Shown here piece after piece: positions 38,251 through 61,851 of a DNA stretch of 64,000 nt. The first letter of the stretch is position 1. Each line of letters starts with the position of its first letter. The notes beneath the pieces were generated by a model, which was given only the letters and a program-made list of their open reading frames with translations, was not told the DNA's origin and ran no database searches. Where the stretch lies: the IMG/VR virus record IMGVR_UViG_3300007351_000587. The stretch is one strand, 5' to 3'. The translations under genes and the position numbers were made by a program. This DNA is from a virus.

Positions 38251-38276
38251 AAACCTTTTTAAACGGCCAACGTCTA
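38251..38276 (+). promoter_or_regulatory. ECF-type promoter, copy 4, upstream of the Y-RNA/tRNA/ro60 cluster
   Basis: AAAC 38251-54, N16, CGTCTA 38271-76. Confidence 0.72.
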
Positions 38277-38356
38277 GTTATTAGCGGAAAGGAATTTTAA
38301 GTTTTTCATTATTTTAGGGTTTTCTAATCAAAATAGAACCGCTATAATAATTATAG

Positions 38357-38396
38357 CCTTGGGACGGTTGAGCCAGTTCGACTCTGGCACCGAGGA
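38357..38396 (+). ncRNA. tRNA top-half mimic (acceptor-like stem + T-arm only)
   Basis: CCTTGG/CCGAGG; GCCAG-TTCGACT-CTGGC; ends 2 nt before Y-like element 1. Confidence 0.45.
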
Positions 38397-38398
38397 AT

Positions 38399-38468
38399 AG
38401 ATAACGTGGTGTAGAACAGGGTTACTTCATATGGCGAAAACACCTTGTTCGCTTTGTTCCCGTTATCT
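38399..38468 (+). ncRNA. Y-RNA-like element 1 (short)
   Basis: AGATAACG/CGTTATCT stem; TGGTGTAGA...GTTACTTCA...GC-TTTGTTCC shared motif. Confidence 0.72.
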
Positions 38469-38471
38469 TAT

Positions 38472-38544
38472 TTCGGCGTGGAGAAGTGGTTAACTCGTCA
38501 GCCTCATAAGCTGAAGATCGCTGGTTCAAATCCAGCCGCCGAGA
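38472..38544 (+). tRNA. tRNA-Met(CAT), partly initiator-like
   Basis: TCAGC-CTCATAA-GCTGA; T1:G72; GCTGG-TTCAAAT-CCAGC. Confidence 0.88.
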
Positions 38545-38546
38545 CT

Positions 38547-38617
38547 ACTTCCGTGGTGGAGATTACGAGTACATCACTGTTAATGATCCCAACTCGTAAA
38601 CGTTTGTTCCCGGAAGT
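38547..38617 (+). ncRNA. Y-RNA-like element 2 (short)
   Basis: ACTTCCG/CGGAAGT; TGGTGGAGA; TTACGAGT/ACTCGTAA; TTTGTTCC; apical ATCA-CTGTTAA-TGAT. Confidence 0.72.
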
Positions 38618-38620
38618 TAT

Positions 38621-38695
38621 CTGACTGTGGTGTAGCCTGGTCAACATACGTGCGTTGGAAGCACGGGAGCGCTGGTTCAAATCCAGCCAGTCAGA
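38621..38695 (+). tRNA. tRNA-Pro(TGG)
   Basis: CTGACTG/CAGTCAG-A; CGTGC-GTTGGAA-GCACG; unusual G32 and A37. Confidence 0.8.
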
Positions 38696-38699
38696 CTTT

Positions 38700-39278
38700 A
38701 TGGCAAACTTGTATCATAAGTTTCTGAATAAAAAGAATAATGCTGCTAAAGAGGGTATTGGATTTTATCTTACGTTTACAGAACTGTGTTCTTTGTTAGA
38801 AGAAGCCCAAATTTGTGAAGACGATTGGTCCAATACAGGGTATCATTTAGCTAGATACAACGATGTTGGGGACTACAAAATAGGTAATTGTAGATTTATT
38901 CCTTATCGAGATAATATTAGTGAAAAGAAGATTTCAGAAGCATCTATAAAGGCCGCAAAAATTAATATTAAAAAGGCACTTGTTTCTCTTACTGAAGATC
39001 AGAAGTTTGAAAGAAACAAAAAAGGAGGTAAAAAAGGAGGGGGAAGTAATAAGGTTACTGATAATGAATTGATTGCATTATATGAAAAAGTGTCCCAAAT
39101 AGATTTTAACAAATGGGGATCTAAAGGGGTTGCTGCAAAGATTCTTGGTTGTAGTCATACCCAAATTGTCAGATTGTTGAAGAAATGGAAAAATTTAGGA
39201 TTGATTGAAGAATATAAGAATAGAAAATTGGCCTGTTCGTCTAACGGTCAGGATAACTGGCTTTCATCCAGTAGATAG
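38700..39278 (+). CDS. HNH-like homing endonuclease with C-terminal HTH; 3' end overlaps tRNA-Glu
   Basis: HLARYNDVGDYKIGNCRFI; ATG 38700; stop inside the tRNA-Glu T-arm region. Confidence 0.68.
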   Translation: MANLYHKFLNKKNNAAKEGIGFYLTFTELCSLLEEAQICEDDWSNTGYHLARYNDVGDYKIGNCRFIPYRDNISEKKISEASIKAAKINIKKALVSLTEDQKFERNKKGGKKGGGSNKVTDNELIALYEKVSQIDFNKWGSKGVAAKILGCSHTQIVRLLKKWKNLGLIEEYKNRKLACSSNGQDNWLSSSR

Positions 39279-39301
39279 GGGTTCGATTCCCCTATGGGCT
39301 A
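39230..39301 (+). tRNA. tRNA-Glu(TTC)
   Basis: ACTGG-CTTTCAT-CCAGT; AGGGG-TTCGATT-CCCCT. Confidence 0.85.
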
Positions 39302-39303
39302 AT

Positions 39304-39436
39304 AGCAGCGTGGCGTAGAGATCGGTTACTTCTCAATTGGTATGAGGCGATGTGGGTTCGAGTCCCACCTATAGAGAAATCTATAGTCTTCTAATGGTAG
39401 GATGCTACGTTACTGGTTTCGCTTTTTCCCGTTGCT
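39304..39436 (+). ncRNA. YrlA-type Y RNA (element 3) with permuted tRNA-like domain
   Basis: AGCAGCG/CGTTGCT; TGGCGTAGA; T-arm GTGGG-TTCGAGT-CCCAC; closed acceptor CTATAGA-GAAA-TCTATAG; D-like TCTTCTAATGGTAGGA. Confidence 0.8.
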
Positions 39437-39443
39437 TATTTGT

Positions 39444-39516
39444 GGGCTCGCATGATCCAAGGGGGCGAGGATGCCTTGCAAGCAACCTGTGAAGGGTTCA
39501 ATTCCCTTCGGGTCCA
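39444..39516 (+). tRNA. tRNA-Ala(TGC)
   Basis: G3:T70 pair; loop CTTGCAA; GAAGG-(G)TTCAATT-CCCTTC T-arm. Confidence 0.82.
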
Positions 39517-39518
39517 CT

Positions 39519-39660
39519 GAGTGGTATGGCGTAGAGATGGGATACTTCATAGGAACCGCCAAAGTGTTGGTTCAAATCCAACCCTCCCGACTTATCGGGA
39601 GGTAGCCCAAAAGCAGAGGCAGCGGTAGCAAGACACCTATTTCGCTTTTTCCTACCACTT
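39519..39660 (+). ncRNA. YrlA-type Y RNA (element 4) with permuted tRNA-like domain
   Basis: AGTGGTA/TACCACT; TGGCGTAGA; GTTGG-TTCAAAT-CCAAC; CTCCCGA-CTTA-TCGGGAG; D-like GTAGCCCAAAAGCAGAGGCA. Confidence 0.8.
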
Positions 39661-39666
39661 TAATCT

Positions 39667-39736
39667 TGACTTGTGGCGTAGACAACAGTTACTTCACTTG
39701 TAATGAAAAGCCTGTTGTCGATTTGTTCCCAAGTCA
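39667..39736 (+). ncRNA. Y-RNA-like element 5 (short), followed by a T7 tract
   Basis: TGACTTG/CAAGTCA; TGGCGTAGA; GACAACAG/CTGTTGTC; TTTGTTCC; apical TTCA-CTTGTAA-TGAA. Confidence 0.75.
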
Positions 39737-39775
39737 TTTTTTTATTTCCTTGAATTTCCTTTGAAGGAGGAAACA

Positions 39776-40480
39776 ATGGCGGCTACTAACAAGAAAGTTA
39801 CTGGTATTAACACTTACGAAACTGAGCGTCTTGCCGGTGGATATGGTCCAAAGGCTGCAAGACAGCCTGAAGAACAGCAGCTTCGTAGATTGGTAATGGC
39901 TTGTTTACTTTGGGAAGATATTGCGTATTTGGATGGTGAGAAGGTCGTAGACAGCATTCGCAGTTTGATACATAAGTTGCCAGCTAGTGTGGTATCTAGT
40001 ATTGCAGTTGAAGCTCGTTTCGAGCAGAAATTACGTCATGTTCCCTTGCTGTTGGCTCGGGAACTTGCTCGCCATAAGGATACTTCTTACACTGCTCATA
40101 CTTTGGCTAAGGTAATCCATCGTCCTGATGAATTGTCTGAGTTCTTGTCTTTGTACTGGAAGGACAATAAGGACAAGGATGGTAAGCCAAAGAAGACTTT
40201 GAGCGCACAGGTAAAGAAGGGATTGGCTATTGCATTCAATAAGTTTAATCAGTACCAGTTGTCCAAGTGGGACAAGGATAGCAAGGAAATTAAGCTGCGG
40301 GATGTTATGTTTCTTAGCCATCCAAAGCCAAACCAGGATCAAGTCACTTTGTGGAAGCAGTTGGCAGAGAACAAGTTACCACCAGCTGACACCTGGGAAG
40401 TGATTCTCTCTGGAGCAAAAGAAAATGGTTTGAGCAAGACCCAAGCTTGGGAGAAAATAATTGATATGTGGGTAGATTAA
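39776..40480 (+). CDS. Ro60/Rsr TROVE-domain protein, N-terminal half
   Basis: LRRLVMACLLWED, LRHVPLLLARELA, RPDELSEFL, QVKKGLAIAFNKFNQYQLSKW, LRDVMFLSHPKP, DTWE; AAGGAGG SD. Confidence 0.88.
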   Translation: MAATNKKVTGINTYETERLAGGYGPKAARQPEEQQLRRLVMACLLWEDIAYLDGEKVVDSIRSLIHKLPASVVSSIAVEARFEQKLRHVPLLLARELARHKDTSYTAHTLAKVIHRPDELSEFLSLYWKDNKDKDGKPKKTLSAQVKKGLAIAFNKFNQYQLSKWDKDSKEIKLRDVMFLSHPKPNQDQVTLWKQLAENKLPPADTWEVILSGAKENGLSKTQAWEKIIDMWVD

Positions 40481-41310
40481 TGAACAGAAAAGAATTGCCA
40501 ATTGCTGAAATAGTTTCCTTATACTTACAAGGTATTTCTATAATGCAACTAGCAGAGAAGTACAATGTTTGGACAGGGACGTTAAAGAATAGGCTAGTAG
40601 AAGCCGGAGTTATATTGAGATCTCATAAAGAATCCCTTCAGCAATTATCAGCTAGAAAGTTAATGTCAGATTCTGCAATTGGTAGAGCGTCTTGGAACAA
40701 GGGTCTAACTAAATATACTCATAAAAGTATTGCTTCTGCTGCGAACAAACTGAGAGTTTCTAATATTGGCCATTTTGTAAGCGATGAAACTAAAGAGAAG
40801 CATAGAATTGCTGCAATTAAAAGAGGTAGACGATTTCCATACTATGCTAATTGTGTAGAATGTGGGAGGAATAAAAAAGAAAATCGTTGTAAACTTTGTA
40901 GAAAATGTACATCTAAAAGGGCATTAAGGTTTTGTTCAATTTTAAGAAAGACCAAGCCTGAAATAAAAGTAGAAAAACTGCTTGGTTATTTGTTTGGGCA
41001 GTATTCTCCGTATGAGTATACTGGATCCAGAAGCTTCTGGATTGATTTTTTGAATGACAAGAGGAAAAACCCAGATTTTACAAGTTTTGAGTTGAATAAA
41101 GTTATTGAAGTGTTTGGTAGATATTGGCATAAAGATGAAGATCCGAATGATTTAATAAAACAATATAAAGATGTTGGATGGGATTGTTTAGTTCTTTGGG
41201 AAGATGAAGTGAATGCTGATTCAATCTATAATTTTACATTTCCTTGGGAATATTTAGCTGAAATTGAAAAGTTTAGAAAAGAAGAATTTTATGGGGAGGA
41301 AGTAGCATGA
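40480..41310 (+). CDS. Vsr/DUF559-like homing endonuclease inserted in ro60
   Basis: N-terminal HTH; KTKPE...NPDF...VIEVFGRYWH...LVLWEDE; TAATG and ATGA couplings at both ends. Confidence 0.8.
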   Translation: MNRKELPIAEIVSLYLQGISIMQLAEKYNVWTGTLKNRLVEAGVILRSHKESLQQLSARKLMSDSAIGRASWNKGLTKYTHKSIASAANKLRVSNIGHFVSDETKEKHRIAAIKRGRRFPYYANCVECGRNKKENRCKLCRKCTSKRALRFCSILRKTKPEIKVEKLLGYLFGQYSPYEYTGSRSFWIDFLNDKRKNPDFTSFELNKVIEVFGRYWHKDEDPNDLIKQYKDVGWDCLVLWEDEVNADSIYNFTFPWEYLAEIEKFRKEEFYGEEVA

Positions 41311-42053
41311 CTGTCAGAAATCATTTTGCTATTTTAAAGAATCTGAGAAACATCAAAGAAGCAGGTGTTTCTTCGGAACATATGAAAAAACTCAGAAGGT
41401 CTTTTCTTGATCCTTCTTGGGAAAAGGCAATGACTGTGCCAATAGATTTTATAAAGGCGCAAAAATACATGCCTGAGTTCAGTCGAGAAATAGAAACAGC
41501 AATGTTGTCTTCGTGCAAGGGTTTTCCCAAACTTCCTGGGTTTACAATTTTCATTGTAGACGTTTCAGGCTCTATGGGTGCCCCAATGTCTGGCAAGAGT
41601 GAATTTAATAGAATGGAAGCAGCAGCTGCTATGACTGTATTAGCAGCTGAAATGTGTGAACATATCAGTGTTTATGCAACTGCAGGAAGCGATAGTTATC
41701 GTAAGCATCAAACTGCGAAGATTAATCCTCTTCGTGGATTTGCTTTGTCTGAAAAGATTTTGGAAGCCCAGCATAGACTTGGCGGAGGTGGTATCTTCAC
41801 TCGTCAAGCTTTGGAGTATGTGAAGGAACACGAAAAAGAAACTCCTGATCGTATTGTTGTATTTTCCGATAGTCAGGATTGTGATTGGGAAAACAGTCGT
41901 AAGCCTAATCCTTTTGGAAAGTACAATTATATTGTGGATGTTTCCAACCATCAGCATGGTATCAATTACAAGGGAGTGTGGACTGCTGAAGTTTCCTCTT
42001 GGTCAGAAGGGTTTTTGAAGTATATAGCAGCATCTGAACAATGCTTAAATTGA
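41307..42053 (+). CDS. Ro60/Rsr C-terminal half (end of TROVE + vWA domain)
   Basis: AILKNLRNI; IVDVSGSM MIDAS; RIVVFSDSQD. Confidence 0.88.
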   Translation: MTVRNHFAILKNLRNIKEAGVSSEHMKKLRRSFLDPSWEKAMTVPIDFIKAQKYMPEFSREIETAMLSSCKGFPKLPGFTIFIVDVSGSMGAPMSGKSEFNRMEAAAAMTVLAAEMCEHISVYATAGSDSYRKHQTAKINPLRGFALSEKILEAQHRLGGGGIFTRQALEYVKEHEKETPDRIVVFSDSQDCDWENSRKPNPFGKYNYIVDVSNHQHGINYKGVWTAEVSSWSEGFLKYIAASEQCLN

Positions 42054-42054
42054 A

Positions 42055-42888
42055 ATGAAAAAATGGTTTGGCACTAAATTCAACATGACATCTGGAATTT
42101 ATGTTATGTGTTCGACTATAGATTCCAGATGTTATGTTGGAAGTGCTACTAGATTAGGAAAAAGGTTTAATGGACACAAAAAAGATTTGTGTAGAGGAAG
42201 TCATCCAAATAAGAGATTACAGAATTTTGTTAACAAATATGGAATTGATTGTTTAAGATTTGATATTTTGGAATTTTGTAAAAAGGAGGATTTGATTAGA
42301 CGGGAGCAATATTATATGGATGAACTTAAACCATTTTTCAATATTGCACCTAAAGCTGGTAACACATTAGGAGTTGTTTGTTCTCCTGCGACTAGAGAAA
42401 AAATAAGCAATGCTAATAAGGGAATTACAAAAAAACAACCGCCAGAATGGATTGATAATGTTAGAGCATTGCTTAAAGAAAGAAATGTCTCTCAAGATAT
42501 GAGAGATAAGATTAGAAAAACAAAGAGCACTCCAGTTTCCCAATATTCCTTTGAAGGAAAACATATCAAAGATTGGCCTTCTTCTAAAGAAGTTTATAGA
42601 CAATTGGGAATTGGTGGTGTGATGGCTTGTTGTAAGGGAAAAATGAGAGAATCTGGAGGATTTAGATGGAGATTTACTTCTGAAAACTTGTTGGAACTTC
42701 CTCCTTATAAAAGACATTGTATCAGAAAAGTCAAAAACAATGTGATGAAATCGCCTTTTATTAATAAAGTATGTATTTATTGTTCTGCGCTATATAAAGT
42801 AAGACAGTTTGTTGCTTGGAGAAGTAAATATTGTAGTGAGTCTTGTAAGTTTTTGTATCGTAAGTCTAATAATGCGCCACTGGTATAG
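42055..42888 (+). CDS. GIY-YIG homing endonuclease with NUMOD3/NUMOD1-like domains; 3' end overlaps tRNA-Gly
   Basis: SGIYVM...CYVGSA; VSQYSFEGKHIKDW...GGFRW. Confidence 0.85.
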   Translation: MKKWFGTKFNMTSGIYVMCSTIDSRCYVGSATRLGKRFNGHKKDLCRGSHPNKRLQNFVNKYGIDCLRFDILEFCKKEDLIRREQYYMDELKPFFNIAPKAGNTLGVVCSPATREKISNANKGITKKQPPEWIDNVRALLKERNVSQDMRDKIRKTKSTPVSQYSFEGKHIKDWPSSKEVYRQLGIGGVMACCKGKMRESGGFRWRFTSENLLELPPYKRHCIRKVKNNVMKSPFINKVCIYCSALYKVRQFVAWRSKYCSESCKFLYRKSNNAPLV

Positions 42889-42944
42889 TGGTTGTGCCCT
42901 AGCCTTCCAAGCTAGAGAGACCAGTCCGATTCTGGTGTGGCGCT
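42874..42944 (+). tRNA. tRNA-Gly(TCC)
   Basis: GCGCCAC/GTGGCGC-T; CTAGC-CTTCCAA-GCTAG. Confidence 0.85.
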
Positions 42945-59589: not shown

Positions 59590-60484
59590 AACACACGAAG
59601 ATAAAACTGATACTATTGGTTATTCCAGAGAACTAAAAAATCCATATAGGAGATTTCCTTCTGGGAGAGTGGATGAGTCTATAAGTCTTTTGGTAAACCC
59701 AGGAAGACAATATAGAGGAAGGTTGTATAAATCAACAAATAGGTTACAATTGGATAAACGTAATCCTAGTAAGAGTATTACAGTGGCAAATGTAGCTTCA
59801 TCTCCGTTCCAAAAAGCAATGAACCATCAAACTGATGGTGGTAACGCTGTCGAATTTATTCCATACACAGGAAAAAGAGGTGGAACTGGTTGTTTGAACA
59901 CTGCTACTGGGAAAGTTAGTTATGGAGATCCCACTAAATGTGAAGTGCCTACTGGAGAGAAAGAGGAAGAAGAAAAACCAAAACCCAGACAAAGGAAAAT
60001 GGAATATCCTAAACATAGGCATAAACCAGTCAGTGGTGAAGAAGAACTTATCTCAACTATTGAAGCTGAAAGTGATTACGACTTATATAAAGGGGCTGGG
60101 AAGTATAAAAATCCAGTTCAATTCATAGTATCTAAAGGCAAAAGATTCAAAGGATCTCCATTAGCTGCTACGTTAATTCAAGGTGAACAAAGTAACTGTT
60201 TTGTTAATGCAACCCGTTTGGTATTAGCAAATCCAGATTATAATTATGCTGAGGGATTTGTAAAAGAAGGTGCAAATCCTCCAGTATTACATGCTTGGGC
60301 AGTTACAAAAGAAGGTAGAGTTGTAGATAATACTTTGGAAAATCCCGGTTCTGCTTCATATATTGGAGTAGTTTTTCCAAGGCAGCAATATTTACAATAT
60401 ATTAGTAAGAACAAGTACTACGGTGTCTTAGGTGGTAACAAAGATCAAGCTGAGGAGGTATTGAGAAAAGGTGGGATTTCATGA
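59561..60484 (+). CDS. Protein with a C-terminal papain/transglutaminase-like Cys-His-Asp domain
   Basis: NCFVNA...LHAWAV...VVDNT. Confidence 0.65.
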   Translation: MAKVPPTTNRTHEDKTDTIGYSRELKNPYRRFPSGRVDESISLLVNPGRQYRGRLYKSTNRLQLDKRNPSKSITVANVASSPFQKAMNHQTDGGNAVEFIPYTGKRGGTGCLNTATGKVSYGDPTKCEVPTGEKEEEEKPKPRQRKMEYPKHRHKPVSGEEELISTIEAESDYDLYKGAGKYKNPVQFIVSKGKRFKGSPLAATLIQGEQSNCFVNATRLVLANPDYNYAEGFVKEGANPPVLHAWAVTKEGRVVDNTLENPGSASYIGVVFPRQQYLQYISKNKYYGVLGGNKDQAEEVLRKGGIS

Positions 60485-61851
60485 GTGTTGGCGTTCCTAA
60501 TATGGCTGAACCTCTTACCCCAGAAGATCAGAAACTGGTGGAAAGAGCATTACAAGCTGGTCAGCCAATGCAAAAAGCCGTGAGAAAAAGTCCATTTGAA
60601 GGGAAATCACTGAGCAAAGGTCTCAGAAAGTGGAAGAATTTTCTTATGTATGCCAGCAAAGCTGTTGATACATTAGTTGAAAATCAGGATATTATATATC
60701 CACCAGCTCAAGATGAAATCGTAGGTTCCAAGAAGCCAGAACAACAATCATCTAAAGTATCTGGCATATCTGGATCTAAACCAGCACGTAAAACTCAAAT
60801 AGCAAATAACATAGCATTTGAAATTCCAAAAGGTGATGATCCAGATTCTGGTACTCCTGGAGAAAAAGAAGGAATATCCCATCTTCCAATCAGTCGTTCT
60901 ATATCTACTAAACCAAGATCTATTCCCAAACCTGAAGAACCAATTTCTCCCAAAGAAAGATTAGCCAGAGAACAGGAAACACTAAACAAAAATAAACGTT
61001 CTGGTGAAGCAGATGCAGCTAATGCAAAAAAAACAAAAGAAGCAAAAGAAATTGCTGAGTTTGGCACTAATGGACCATTTGACAAATCAAACGTAGATCA
61101 ATGGCCGTCTATTGATAAAATGTTGAAAATTTGGGGACCTTTAATACTAAATAGGGCTAAAAGGATGTTGGCAGGAAATAAAGGTGCGGAACAAACTGCC
61201 GAAGATATGGTTAGTTACGCAATATGGAAACATATTAAATTCAGAGGAGATGTTAAGCTAGGATATAAAACTGATGATGATGGTAATCCAGAATTAGATA
61301 AATCTGGTAATAAAATACCAGTTGAAGTTCCTAGAGGAAGATATGATTCATTAGAAGCTTTTAGAAATAGTTTTCTAAATCATATATTTTCAAGGACCAT
61401 AGATAAAGGAAGAAGTATGACTGCTGATCCTGAAACAAAAGGAAGATCTATGTTCAGCAAGGAAGGTAAATACATAAGCGAAGTTAATAAATTAGATATT
61501 TCACCTGAACAATTGTTGTCTAGAAAAGAAACTCAAGATCAATTAAGATCTATCATTGATTCTTTACCAGAGATTGAAAAAACTGTATTGATGCTTCATC
61601 ATTTTGGAAATCCAAACGATTTAAGTGGAGCAGAAGAATTAGGAAGTGGTGTTTCAAAAAGAGAAAAGGGTATGAAATTAGAAGACATTGCAAATAGTTT
61701 AAGTGTTAAACTAGGCAGGGAAATTCCAGTAAACACAGTTAAAACATGGCTTCGTAAAGCTAGACAAACACTAGAAGAAAAAATAAGTGATGAATTGTTG
61801 GAAGATGTTAAATCTCCTACTTGGAGAGAAGGTAGATCGTTACCAGAGTAA
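60481..61851 (+). CDS. ECF-like sigma factor with a ~200-aa N-terminal extension
   Basis: AEQTAEDMVSYAIWK region 2; IDSLPEIEKTVLML...LEDIA...IPVNTVKTWLRKARQTL region 4. Confidence 0.75.
   Translation: MSVGVPNMAEPLTPEDQKLVERALQAGQPMQKAVRKSPFEGKSLSKGLRKWKNFLMYASKAVDTLVENQDIIYPPAQDEIVGSKKPEQQSSKVSGISGSKPARKTQIANNIAFEIPKGDDPDSGTPGEKEGISHLPISRSISTKPRSIPKPEEPISPKERLAREQETLNKNKRSGEADAANAKKTKEAKEIAEFGTNGPFDKSNVDQWPSIDKMLKIWGPLILNRAKRMLAGNKGAEQTAEDMVSYAIWKHIKFRGDVKLGYKTDDDGNPELDKSGNKIPVEVPRGRYDSLEAFRNSFLNHIFSRTIDKGRSMTADPETKGRSMFSKEGKYISEVNKLDISPEQLLSRKETQDQLRSIIDSLPEIEKTVLMLHHFGNPNDLSGAEELGSGVSKREKGMKLEDIANSLSVKLGREIPVNTVKTWLRKARQTLEEKISDELLEDVKSPTWREGRSLPE

Follow-up and report, generated by a model that had tools for sequence, protein, structure and literature searches.

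We propose that positions 38251-42053 of the window (the whole 64,000-nt stretch of viral DNA that was analysed) very probably hold a phage-encoded Ro60/Y-RNA system, in which closing stems and Ro60 would set the ends of five Y-like RNAs, Y1 to Y5, and their heads would link partners (Table 1). What was established computationally is that the RNA family exists, that it has a covarying structure and is linked to Ro60, that the protein is Ro60 and that its gene is split; from these data we infer co-transcription and processing of the Y elements, their binding to Ro60 and their function as adaptors. Judged by sequence comparison, the five elements are a real, conserved and divergent phage Y-RNA family, a branch of the known Ro60/Y-RNA system and not a new kind, because the same arrays occur beside Ro60 in 17 of 17 related IMG/VR contigs and in crAss001. 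By the same comparison, a Y array beside Ro60 is the rule in this clade and not peculiar to this phage; several phage Y-like RNAs beside Ro60 are already on record for phiLo and CKA15.

Table 1 Features of the RNA/ro60 block (window coordinates; R1 and R2 are covariance models described in the text)
Feature	Position	Strand	Evidence or remark
Candidate phage-specific (ECF-like) promoter of the RNA/ro60 block	38251..38276	+	AAAC-N16-CGTCTA motif
Possible acceptor/T-arm minihelix	38357..38395	+	read from sequence; fold z -1.1 vs shuffles
Y1, short-form Y-like RNA	38399..38468	+	R1 54.4 bits, E 1e-11, outside seed; fold z -3.6
tRNA-Met (CAT)	38472..38545	+	ARAGORN; Rfam tRNA 65 bits
Y2, short-form Y-like RNA	38547..38617	+	R1 67.4 bits (in R1 seed); R2 43.9 bits, E 1.9e-8
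tRNA-Pro (TGG)	38621..38696	+	ARAGORN, Rfam
192-aa ORF interrupting the RNA array	38700..39278	+	phrog_16521, unknown function, E 6e-10
tRNA-Glu (TTC)	39229..39302	+	ARAGORN, Rfam
Y3, long-form (YrlA-like) RNA	39304..39436	+	R2 78.7 bits, E 1.8e-16, full length
Non-canonical tRNA-Ala-like element	39444..39517	+	tmRNA tRNA-like domain is best match, 19 bits
Y4, long-form (YrlA-like) RNA	39520..39659	+	R2 76.7 bits, E 5e-16, full length
Y5, short-form Y-like RNA	39667..39736	+	R1 55.6 bits (outside seed), R2 47.1 bits
ro60 N-terminal half, 234 aa, TROVE HEAT repeats	39776..40480	+	phrog_850 positions 31-205
276-aa inserted ORF splitting ro60	40480..41310	+	weak HTH_7 and phrog_559 HNH matches
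ro60 C-terminal half, 248 aa	41307..42053	+	VWA_2 34.7 bits, above cut-off; vWA_Ro60 20.6 bits

An earlier note, made from the sequence alone, had described five elements with one scaffold and with stems that differ in sequence yet still pair; both observations were borne out, with all five elements at the positions it gave. On its + strand, the window has five copies of the core motif TGGYGKAGA-N7-TACWTC (38407, 38554, 39311, 39527 and 39674), against a mean of 0.61 matches in shuffled sequences, none of which (0/100) reached five. A pattern search of the 1.4-Mb assembly returned no convincing extra copy: its one match, with a single mismatch on contig C9, was not matched by R1, which found only the window's own copies there. 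RNAfold gave all five elements the same structure (z-scores -2.1 to -3.6): a 7-bp stem closes the element and is followed by a bulged U and a GG:CC step, and an asymmetric internal loop (5'-YGNAG and 3'-UUGUU) then leads to a 9-bp second stem, which carries a head that varies. The two conserved motifs are similar to GNCGAAN0-1G and YUAY of the literature, the window form of the first being GGYG(U/G)AG and thus differing from strict GNCGAA; we propose that the 5' strand of this module corresponds to the published motif and that the module is a phage version of the Ro60-binding bulged helix. By their predicted folds, Y3 and Y4 have the YrlA architecture, in which the scaffold is followed by a V hairpin, T arm, closed acceptor-like hairpin and D arm, the permuted order that the earlier note had read in them (the D arm of Y4 is a variant, its loop lacking GG). 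Y1, Y2 and Y5 are, on the same reading, short YrlB-like forms that keep only a short hairpin.

All five elements were recovered by two new covariance models, R1 (seeded with Y2 and eight elements of other contigs) and R2 (seeded with elements of other contigs only, holding no window sequence). R1 found Y1 and Y5 at 54-56 bits, and R2 found Y3 and Y4 at 77-79 bits, as well as Y5 and Y2. The Rfam YrlA model, proposed in the earlier note alongside a new one, brought no element to its gathering score of 69: Y3 scored 16.6 bits, on its T/AS/D part only, and the best relative, a long form aligned end to end, 33.6 bits (E 2.5e-5). Both stems covaried strongly across relatives. In the nine-sequence set, 92% of cells were paired (62% in shuffles, ~50% with slid partners), with double changes in 15 of 18 pairs. 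Stem 1 covariation is partly circular, because stem 1 pairing was the selection criterion for the first element set; stem 2, 90% paired, played no part in picking elements, and it and the leave-out model are free of this circularity. Across 39 sequences, 87.6% of cells were paired and the GG:CC pairs showed five double changes with none broken, while in the long forms 25 of 32 pairs were compensatory, T, AS and D arms included.

Arrays in other ro60 phages, for which the earlier note had advised a search, were found in every related locus examined. Over 254 kb, R1 made 39 matches, each of them on the same strand as Ro60 and upstream of it, mostly no more than 1.5 kb away; together with R2, it placed arrays of 1-6 elements, with spacers mostly <15 nt, at 17 of 17 related IMG/VR Ro60 loci. 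Elements also occur in L028, a second contig with split Ro60, and in crAss001. Sequence data support a structured-RNA family whose genes, in related phages, consistently accompany Ro60 on its own strand. tRNAs are part of some arrays (L011, L017), and L016 has four tRNA genes immediately upstream of its array. Since elements sit in and beside tRNA clusters, they could instead be tRNA-derived structured spacers that punctuate or stabilise a tRNA/mRNA precursor, with no specific relation to Ro60; in this direction, ARAGORN calls the 5' part of long forms tRNA (L008 2058-2134, L014 1157-1235), and one such form scores 29.7 bits with the Rfam tRNA model. However, a stretch of 28 tRNAs in LR756511.1 with no Ro60 nearby gave no R1 match, the two elements of L016 adjoin Ro60 downstream of 20 tRNAs and not among them, many arrays hold no tRNA at all (L007, L012, L013, L015, L019-L023), and the internal-loop sequence is conserved, for which a simple spacer would have no need. 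We give the spacer explanation very little credence.

Proximity to the coding region raises another alternative, that the elements act in cis, as leader structures within the ro60 mRNA (for instance autoregulatory sites bound by Ro60, or attenuators), and not as free RNAs. Between the end of Y5 and the ro60 ATG there are 39 nt, the usual distance from array to gene is 20-110 nt, and no terminator separates elements from ro60. A leader is nevertheless difficult to square with up to six copies that have differing heads and intervening tRNAs and an ORF; the crAss001 elements are found on the downstream side of the TROVE gene gp96, in L028 an IS605-type gene separates array and ro60, and the long forms carry the full YrlA tRNA-like domain known from free RNAs. 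Leader structures are the least probable of the alternatives, and we regard them as very remote.

We return to discrete Y RNAs and to the array that would release them. The order given in the earlier note held for tRNA-Met, tRNA-Pro and tRNA-Glu, whereas its 'tRNA-Ala' proved to be a non-canonical tRNA-like element; 39444-39517 was called by neither ARAGORN nor the Rfam tRNA model. It has G3:U70, UGC at the anticodon position and a degenerate D arm without a proper D stem. An element within the tRNA array of the 595-kb uncultured phage LR756511.1 shares 92% identity with it, the differences including a compensatory one in the acceptor stem. The source contig of the window is itself probably a large phage. 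Spacers between neighbouring RNA genes are indeed short, measuring 1-7 nt (2-7 nt in the earlier note). The ORF described as a nuclease had no Pfam match and a PHROG of unknown function; its atlas leads, NUMOD3 and I-HmuI_NUMOD-like clusters at 0.86-0.87, lie below the 0.9 mark, and its final 50 nt overlap tRNA-Glu. It may be a small homing endonuclease of the HNH/NUMOD type, with an HTH at its C-terminus. The putative minihelix combines a CCTTGG/CCGAGG stem with a good T-arm-like hairpin (GCCAG-TTCGACT-CTGGC), although its fold energy is no better than that of shuffles. The motif at 38251, taken in the earlier note for an ECF promoter, is present and belongs to a set of four exact + strand copies in the window (nine matches with ≤1 mismatch vs 2.3 expected); it stands as a candidate promoter. 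The window also encodes a sigma-70 region 4 protein (60481-61851). The RNA/ro60 unit is bounded by neither a sigma-70 promoter nor an intrinsic terminator that rises above background.

The block is most likely one + strand transcription unit. Its precursor would run minihelix, Y1, tRNA-Met, Y2, tRNA-Pro, endonuclease-like ORF, tRNA-Glu, Y3, tRNA-Ala-like element, Y4, Y5 and ro60 mRNA, and may be cut at the embedded tRNAs by host RNase P and 3'-end processing. Closing stems and bound Ro60 would then define the final Y RNA ends, and the differing heads, a permuted tRNA-like domain as in YrlA for Y3/Y4 and a short hairpin as in YrlB for Y1/Y2/Y5, would connect Ro60 to differing partners such as PNPase or tRNA-binding enzymes. 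Several points count against this model: no element attains the YrlA gathering score, the window motif departs from strict GNCGAA, no sigma-70 promoter or terminator above background bounds the unit, a protein-coding ORF lies inside the array, Y-Y junctions without a tRNA (Y4-Y5, 7 nt) require a further processing route, and a split Ro60 might be inactive. The heads also suggest free tRNA mimics whose main job lies outside phage Ro60, with Ro60 at most a chaperone; such RNAs might be decoys or competitors for host tRNA-targeting nucleases, tRNA-modifying enzymes or the translation apparatus. The tRNA-like T, acceptor and D arms of the long forms fit mimicry, as do the many tRNA and translation functions nearby (PTH2, many tRNAs, a helicase fused to a 2H phosphoesterase) and 7-nt anticodon-type head loops, CU-NNN-AA, in Y2 (CUGUUAA), Y5 (CUUGUAA) and ~10 elements elsewhere, but by this crude count such loops are confined to a minority of the elements. 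What all elements conserve is the stem/internal-loop module and not the head, and their linkage to Ro60 is strict, which argues for Ro60 as the common partner; mimicry as the main role is improbable, if the least so of the three alternatives.

The Ro60 homologue named in the earlier note was confirmed by its vWA domain and by matches to phrog_850 and phiLo Ro60. Its gene is split into two coupled ORFs by what appears from its sequence to be a homing-endonuclease-like gene; the account of the array in the earlier note had not included this split. Ro60 would be made as two polypeptides because this gene is inserted into its most conserved motif. The N-terminal half, preceded by a strong SD, has 2020 homologues, most of which are unsplit, 440-500 aa long and score as TROVE+VWA, while the C-terminal half (phrog_850 positions 210-395; phiLo Ro60, E 3e-7) holds the end of the TROVE ring with an LKNLRN motif and a vWA domain with DVSGS. 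The inserted ORF, with an HTH and a nuclease-like C-terminus, overlaps the ro60 halves at its start and stop (TAATG, ATGA) and shares 38% identity (E 7e-63) with the ORF that occupies this site in the split ro60 of L028, a lineage whose N-terminal half is ~50% identical. It is missing in 16 of 17 IMG/VR relatives, and in L010 the ro60 C-terminal half was not found. A seamless junction, an SD of the C-terminal half's own, the recurrence in the L028 lineage and a complex prediction support the view that the split is tolerated. For the two halves, the prediction gave an ipSAE of 0.55 (best control 0.01), graded by the tool as weak support, with runs that share at least 40% of their contacts and a partner pLDDT of at least 74; of 78 solved complexes 51 attained the pass mark, as did 2 of 108 mismatched pairs. 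The two polypeptides probably come together again as the ring, though the split Ro60 might be inactive. The literature searched held no description of a split Ro60.

YrlA (Rfam RF02553) and YrlB are the Y RNAs of Salmonella, Mycobacterium and mycobacteriophages, and in Salmonella and M. smegmatis only the 5' strand of the binding module is recognisable (Chen et al. 2014, PMC4201824). The window family shares with them genes on the Ro60 strand within a few kb, a GNCGAAN0-1G-type 5' motif, a UAC (YUAY) opening the V hairpin, long forms with T arm, acceptor-like hairpin and D arm in the same permuted order, and short forms without the tRNA-like domain alongside. It differs in its YrlA scores (16.6-33.6 bits with relatives, against a threshold of 69), in a motif relaxed to GGYGNAG, in conservation of both module strands (3' UUGUUCC) with a bulged U and a covarying GG:CC step, and in having up to 5-6 copies per locus packed head to tail. 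The idea of a joint Y RNA-tRNA precursor has a precedent in D. radiodurans, where Yrn2-tRNAAsp-Yrn1 forms one polycistronic precursor upstream of rsr; Y RNAs are separated by tRNA in both, with two Y RNAs and one tRNA there and five Y RNAs, three tRNAs, a tRNA-like element and an ORF here.

The best solved-structure match of both Ro60 halves is Ro60 of Thermus phage phiLo (PDB 9KOP, 9L5Y), which binds Yrl1/Yrl2 and, with them, host PNPase (PMC12135203). Here too a phage Ro60 has more than one Y-like RNA encoded upstream, but phiLo has two such RNAs, identified via a CGAA motif, and a single-chain Ro60, and sequence similarity is low (E 0.25 for the N-terminal half, which is collinear with 9KOP). 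Listeria phage CKA15 has three abundant ncRNAs upstream of an Rsr-like gene. The closest cultured-phage homologue is the TROVE-domain protein gp96 of crAss001 (Crassvirales), 49% identical over the C-terminal half; the same RNA models match in the 906-nt unannotated gap adjoining gp96, on its downstream side, and its Ro60 is unsplit. In the accessible crAss001 literature, gp96 figures only as an early 'possible ribonucleoprotein component', and Y RNA goes unmentioned. Phage genes split by free-standing homing endonucleases are known, as in the split nrdA of Aeromonas phage Aeh1; there, as here, the endonuclease gene lies inside a conserved motif and leaves two translationally coupled halves needing reassembly, whereas the target here is Ro60.

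In the 64-kb window, the motif TGGYGKAGA-N7-TACWTC has exactly five matches, all on the plus strand, compared with a mean of 0.61 matches in shuffled sequence, where none of 100 shuffles reached five. The Y-like elements marked by these copies (Y1–Y5) lie 40–1380 nt upstream of ro60 on the plus strand, in a region (38251–42053) of a contig that carries every gene on that strand. When folded independently with RNAfold (z-scores −2.1 to −3.6), all five adopted one shape: a closing stem of 7–8 bp, a single bulged U, two G:C pairs, an asymmetric internal loop (5′ side 4 nt, 3′ side 7–8 nt), a second stem of 8–9 bp, and a head. Stem sequences vary among the copies, yet pairing is intact in each. 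Y3 and Y4 additionally carry a T arm, an acceptor-like stem-loop, and a D arm, in that order, and Y1, Y2, and Y5 do not. The observation made in the earlier note, of five elements with a common scaffold at these positions, ordered Y1, tRNA-Met, Y2, tRNA-Pro, a nuclease-like ORF, tRNA-Glu, Y3, tRNA-Ala, Y4, Y5, and ro60 with short spacers (1–7 nt), is confirmed, as is the permuted domain of Y3 and Y4, which is evident from the folds, the long-form alignment, and full-length covariance model matches; the interpretation placed on it is partly supported. Across the 1.4-Mb assembly, the only additional pattern match (one mismatch, on another contig) did not match our short-form covariance model and was rejected as a Y element.

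Of the tRNAs that the earlier note had placed among the elements, tRNA-Met, tRNA-Pro, and tRNA-Glu were called concordantly by ARAGORN and Rfam, but the tRNA-Ala proved non-canonical and was called by neither ARAGORN nor the Rfam tRNA model. This tRNA-Ala-like element is 92% identical to a sequence inside the tRNA array of a 595-kb uncultured phage (LR756511.1), with a compensatory change in the acceptor stem between the two phages; the 12-kb stretch of that phage examined contained no Y-like match. DNA similarity to known phages was confined to tRNA matches and this element. Two endonuclease-like ORFs each overlap the 5′ portion of the tRNA gene that follows. Further downstream, a DUF7873 ORF is followed by a structured non-coding stretch that lacks the Y scaffold but has a T arm, a D-like arm almost identical to Y4's, and, at its 3′ end, a strong hairpin with a T run after it.

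Coordinates of the features described, in the window unless another sequence is named
Feature	Position	Strand	Remarks
Y1	38399–38468	+	motif at 38407
Y2	38547–38617	+	motif at 38554
Y3	39304–39436	+	motif at 39311
Y4	39520–39659	+	motif at 39527
Y5	39667–39736	+	motif at 39674
AAAC-N16-CGTCTA	4229, 10239, 28728, 38251	+	exact copies, T-rich spacers
192-aa endonuclease-like ORF	38700–39278	+	50-nt overlap with tRNA-Glu
tRNA-Ala-like element	39444–39517		G3:U70, UGC, no D stem
ro60, N-terminal half	39776–40480	+	
Inserted ORF	40480–41310	+	276 aa, endonuclease-like
ro60, C-terminal half	41307–42053	+	
GIY-YIG endonuclease-like ORF	42055–42888	+	15-nt overlap with tRNA-Gly (42874–42944)
DUF7873 ORF	45637–46380	+	
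Structured non-coding stretch	46380–46860		~480 nt; T arm ~46608
Sigma70_r4_2 protein	60481–61851	+	
CU-NNN-AA loops	Y2 38569–38590; Y5 39690–39709; ~10 elements in related loci L007–L020		e.g. CUGUUAA, CUUGUAA, CUCAUAA
Long-form Y RNAs called tRNA (Pro, Gln) in 5′ part	L008:2058–2134; L014:1157–1235; L020:5406–5470		related IMG/VR contigs
Mini-tmRNA	L017:5049–5121		73 nt; related IMG/VR contig
tRNA-Ala-like counterpart	L024:6001–6083		LR756511.1
Ro60 N-terminal half	L010:3191–3796		related IMG/VR contig
Split ro60	L028:4001–6337		metagenome contig
IS605 OrfB/TnpB-type gene	L028:2651–3748		between Y-like array and split ro60
crAss001 gap	L030:5242–6146 = NC_049977.1 ~95965–96869	minus strand of record	at least two or three model matches

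To place the array among its relatives, we used 17 IMG/VR contigs encoding a homologue of the downstream protein (38–51% identity) and built two covariance models. The short-form model (R1) was seeded with nine short elements, Y2 being the sole one from the window. In the seed alignment 92% of cells are paired, versus 62% after shuffling and 43–53% with slid partners, and both-side changes occur in 15 of 18 pairs; the seed elements were chosen partly by stem-1 pairing, and stem 1 is hence no independent test. Stem 2, which lay outside the selection criteria, is 90% paired in this nine-sequence alignment, with compensatory changes in eight of nine pairs. Searched against both strands of 254 kb, R1 returned 39 matches, every one on the strand of the Ro60 gene and upstream of it, most less than 1.5 kb away, and these included Y1 and Y5 (54–56 bits). 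Some copies would allow GGYG to pair with a 3′ CGCC, as in Rfam's YrlA model; the 39-sequence alignment favours a GG:CC step instead, since the two sides of this near-invariant step have changed together in five cases (to A:U or C:G) and the pairing is nowhere broken.

Y3 and Y4, owing to the long inserts they contain, received no score from R1 even with filters off, a problem solved by the long-form model (R2), which was seeded as a leave-out test with 12 long forms from other contigs only and matched Y3 (78.7 bits) and Y4 (76.7 bits) at full length, as well as Y5 and Y2, where the match skips the tRNA-like module. The RNAalifold consensus of the long-form alignment (13 elements) comprises both stems of the scaffold along with a T arm, a closed hairpin, and a D arm, with 25 of 32 pairs compensatory. 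With R2 included, same-strand elements adjoin the Ro60 gene in 17/17 related loci, packed head to tail in arrays of one to six; tRNAs stand within the arrays of two loci (L011 and L017) and directly upstream of the array in a third (L016). As arrays of this size range are found in all 17 loci, the five elements of the window are a typical large example of a conserved architecture rather than a peculiarity of this phage. Among the checks suggested in the earlier note were a new covariance model and a search of other ro60 phages for arrays; the new models recover the elements, the 17 related loci carry such arrays, and compensatory changes are seen in the alignments.

About 300 nt upstream of one related array (L017) lies a 'mini-tmRNA', in which a tmRNA tRNA-like domain with an encoded CCA is retained and ~10 nt replace the mRNA/pseudoknot part (Rfam tmRNA 65 bits, threshold 47). 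In three other related loci, long-form Y RNAs have a 5′ portion that ARAGORN or Rfam reads as a tRNA, the parts so taken being the closing stem, the GNCGAAG-like motif, a V hairpin with a 7-nt loop, and the T arm; long-form Y RNAs would thus lead to spurious tRNA calls when phage genomes are annotated, and there is a hint here that the scaffold is of tRNA origin. A clear 7-nt loop of the anticodon-loop form CU-NNN-AA was seen in the head or V hairpin of about a dozen elements; such loops recur and are not universal, the count being crude, as it comes from a simple hairpin finder that often chose alternative hairpins, and we attach no statistics to it.

Judged by sequence, the downstream gene is a Ro60 homologue, but a split one. 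Its two ORFs match phrog_850 ('RNA-binding protein') collinearly at positions 31–205 and 210–395, and both find their best match among solved structures in the Ro60 of Thermus phage phiLo, with the N-terminal half aligning to residues 27–199 and the C-terminal half to 300–476. An exhaustive HMMER search found 2020 relatives of the N-terminal half, mostly single proteins of 440–500 aa; among the best 150 representatives, both halves align in 122, and the pairs listed are collinear and seamless. Neither half alone reached Pfam TROVE, and nor did a whole-genome TROVE search, because the split falls within the best-conserved TROVE motif. Four unsplit relatives (~50% identity) score 39–62 bits for TROVE versus a Pfam cut-off of 23, and all four match VWA_2, one above its cut-off. 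The C-terminal half itself reaches 34.7 bits for VWA_2 (cut-off 27) and carries a DVSGS MIDAS motif (DxSxS). The assignment to Ro60 therefore follows from the collinear phrog_850 matches, the phiLo match, the TROVE- and VWA-bearing relatives, and the VWA_2/DVSGS signature.

Rather than a single polypeptide, ro60 comprises two ORFs around an inserted gene of 831 nt, placed between 'WEKIIDMW' and 'LKNLRN'. A group I intron was ruled out: at each junction the stop codon of one ORF overlaps the start codon of the next (TAATG and ATGA), leaving no space for an intron structure. The halves are translationally coupled, and the C-terminal half has its own GGAGG. The gene is unsplit in 16 of 17 IMG/VR relatives; in the remaining one (L010), tblastn found an N-terminal half and no C-terminal half in the next 6 kb, and the gene there may be split, truncated, or too diverged. 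The same split recurs in a metagenome contig (L028), where the N-terminal half (P0002) is ~50% identical to that of the window, the inserted ORF is 38% identical (E 7e−63), and three Y-like elements lie upstream; this contig also carries an IS605 OrfB/TnpB-type gene. Three further homologue representatives (P0023, P0043, and P0067) terminate at or near the end position of the window's N-terminal half. Both halves are intact across the divergence between the window and the metagenome contig, which argues that a two-piece Ro60 would be functional. Complex prediction gave an ipSAE of 0.55 for the two halves versus 0.01 for the best control, with at least 40% of contacts shared between runs and a partner pLDDT of at least 74 (51 of 78 solved complexes attain the pass mark, as do 2 of 108 mismatched pairs), and this modelling weakly supports reassembly of the halves. 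The split Ro60 offers a natural experiment on ring assembly.

The contig probably stems from a large phage that was binned into a MAG, because it carries several homing endonucleases, 11 tRNAs, metabolic and sigma-like genes (RNR, NAMPT, isocitrate lyase, PTH2, and a sigma-like protein), and PHROG matches, and because the relatives were all found on viral contigs, the longest of 253 kb. Among the genes of the window, none was recognized as a structural hallmark; neither the 2182-aa ORF nor the other large ORFs matched one. A promoter/terminator scan yielded nothing above background. The window contains four exact plus-strand copies of AAAC-N16-CGTCTA and encodes a Sigma70_r4_2 protein; these copies may be promoters for a phage-encoded sigma factor.

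Among cultured phages, the closest relatives of the Ro60 protein are TROVE proteins of crAss-like Bacteroides phages (49% identity). A 906-nt unannotated gap directly downstream of crAss001 gp96 (TROVE), between it and gp95, matches both models (R1 32.4 and 24.2 bits; R2 20.7 bits), and both R1 matches fold into the scaffold. The accessible crAss literature describes gp96 as an early gene and a 'possible ribonucleoprotein component', and we found no mention of Y RNAs beside it there. As crAss001, where the same elements adjoin the early TROVE gene, is a culturable phage from a group dominant in the human gut and has published transcriptomes, the hypothesis that Ro60 adaptors are interchangeable can be tested directly.

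Beyond the observed element family, its structure, its linkage to Ro60, and the split gene, we propose that a single transcript would start from the AAAC-N16-CGTCTA motif at 38251, that the interleaved tRNAs would be processed by RNase P and at their 3′ ends, freeing the Y RNAs, that Ro60 would bind the conserved module, and that the heads might serve as partner-specific adaptors. The broadest version, which we consider rather improbable, is that a phage clade stretching from large freshwater to gut crAss-like phages encodes combinatorial Ro60 adaptors, each combining one Ro60-binding module with varied heads (canonical or variant tRNA-like domains, anticodon-loop-like hairpins) in arrays grown by tandem duplication, so that early in infection a single Ro60, here a two-piece ring, would be sent to various RNA-processing partners or would act as a decoy for host defences that target tRNAs.

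The features of YrlA compiled by Chen et al. 2014 (PMC4201824) are a location near Ro60 on its strand, a GNCGAAN0-1G motif toward the 5′ end that is proposed to contact Rsr, YUAY starting the V hairpin, the arm order T, acceptor-like, D, and the presence alongside of shorter Y RNAs, YrlB being an example. All five elements of the window lie within ~4 kb of the TROVE gene on its strand, as do those of the 17/17 related loci. The 5′ motif reads GGUGUAG, GGUGGAG, and, in three copies, GGCGUAG, thus keeping G, G, and AG, with U or G in place of A at position 5 and, in two copies, U at position 3; the exact GGCGAAG is present in two relatives (L014 and L021), L021 also has a CGGCG variant, and the Rfam YrlA alignment sets GNCGAAN0-1G and the relatives' motif opposite each other. 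At the YUAY position we find UUAC in Y1, Y3, and Y5, GUAC in Y2, and AUAC in Y4, with UAC invariant and the V hairpin next. The two conserved strings singled out in the earlier note correspond to the two YrlA motifs, GGYG(U/G)AG being apparently a relaxed GNCGAAG. Y3 and Y4 follow the YrlA design, and Y1, Y2, and Y5, lacking the tRNA-like domain, a YrlB-like one; unlike YrlA, the phage family has a conserved 3′ strand, UUGUUCC. By analogy, with binding and function read from this likeness, the family would work like YrlA/YrlB.

The likeness to the YrlA model itself, a check suggested in the earlier note, is partial: RF02553 aligns a related long form end to end (33.6 bits, the best relative), but Y3 gave the single, partial YrlA match of a permissive scan of the window (16.6 bits), the scan at gathering threshold returned tRNAs only, and the YrlA threshold of 69 bits was reached by no element of the window or of 11 related loci. 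The family is probably a distant relative of YrlA, below the threshold for curated membership, and R1 and R2 could serve as seeds for an Rfam family, whether a new one or an extension.

Y RNAs have been described from both bacteria and phages, though few have been studied. Ro60 with Y-like RNAs has been described in mycobacteriophages, CcrColossus, Bacillus phage G, and phiLo, the last with two Yrls and bound PNPase (PMC12135203); Iyer et al. 2021 noted TROVE proteins of jumbo phages 'with a tRNA-like partner', Listeria phage CKA15 has three abundant ncRNAs upstream of an Rsr-like gene, and Deinococcus produces a Yrn2-tRNAAsp-Yrn1 precursor (Chen et al. 2014). The kind of system is therefore already known, and the window holds a divergent, multi-copy phage branch of it. 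As far as could be checked, the specific family, the array size, and the reach are new. Interest comes mainly from a well-defined, widespread family now testable in crAss001, and the lineage is marked by a predicted Ro60-binding module that is sharply defined on both strands and covaries, by heads diversified inside a single array, and by its being missed by Rfam's current YrlA model.
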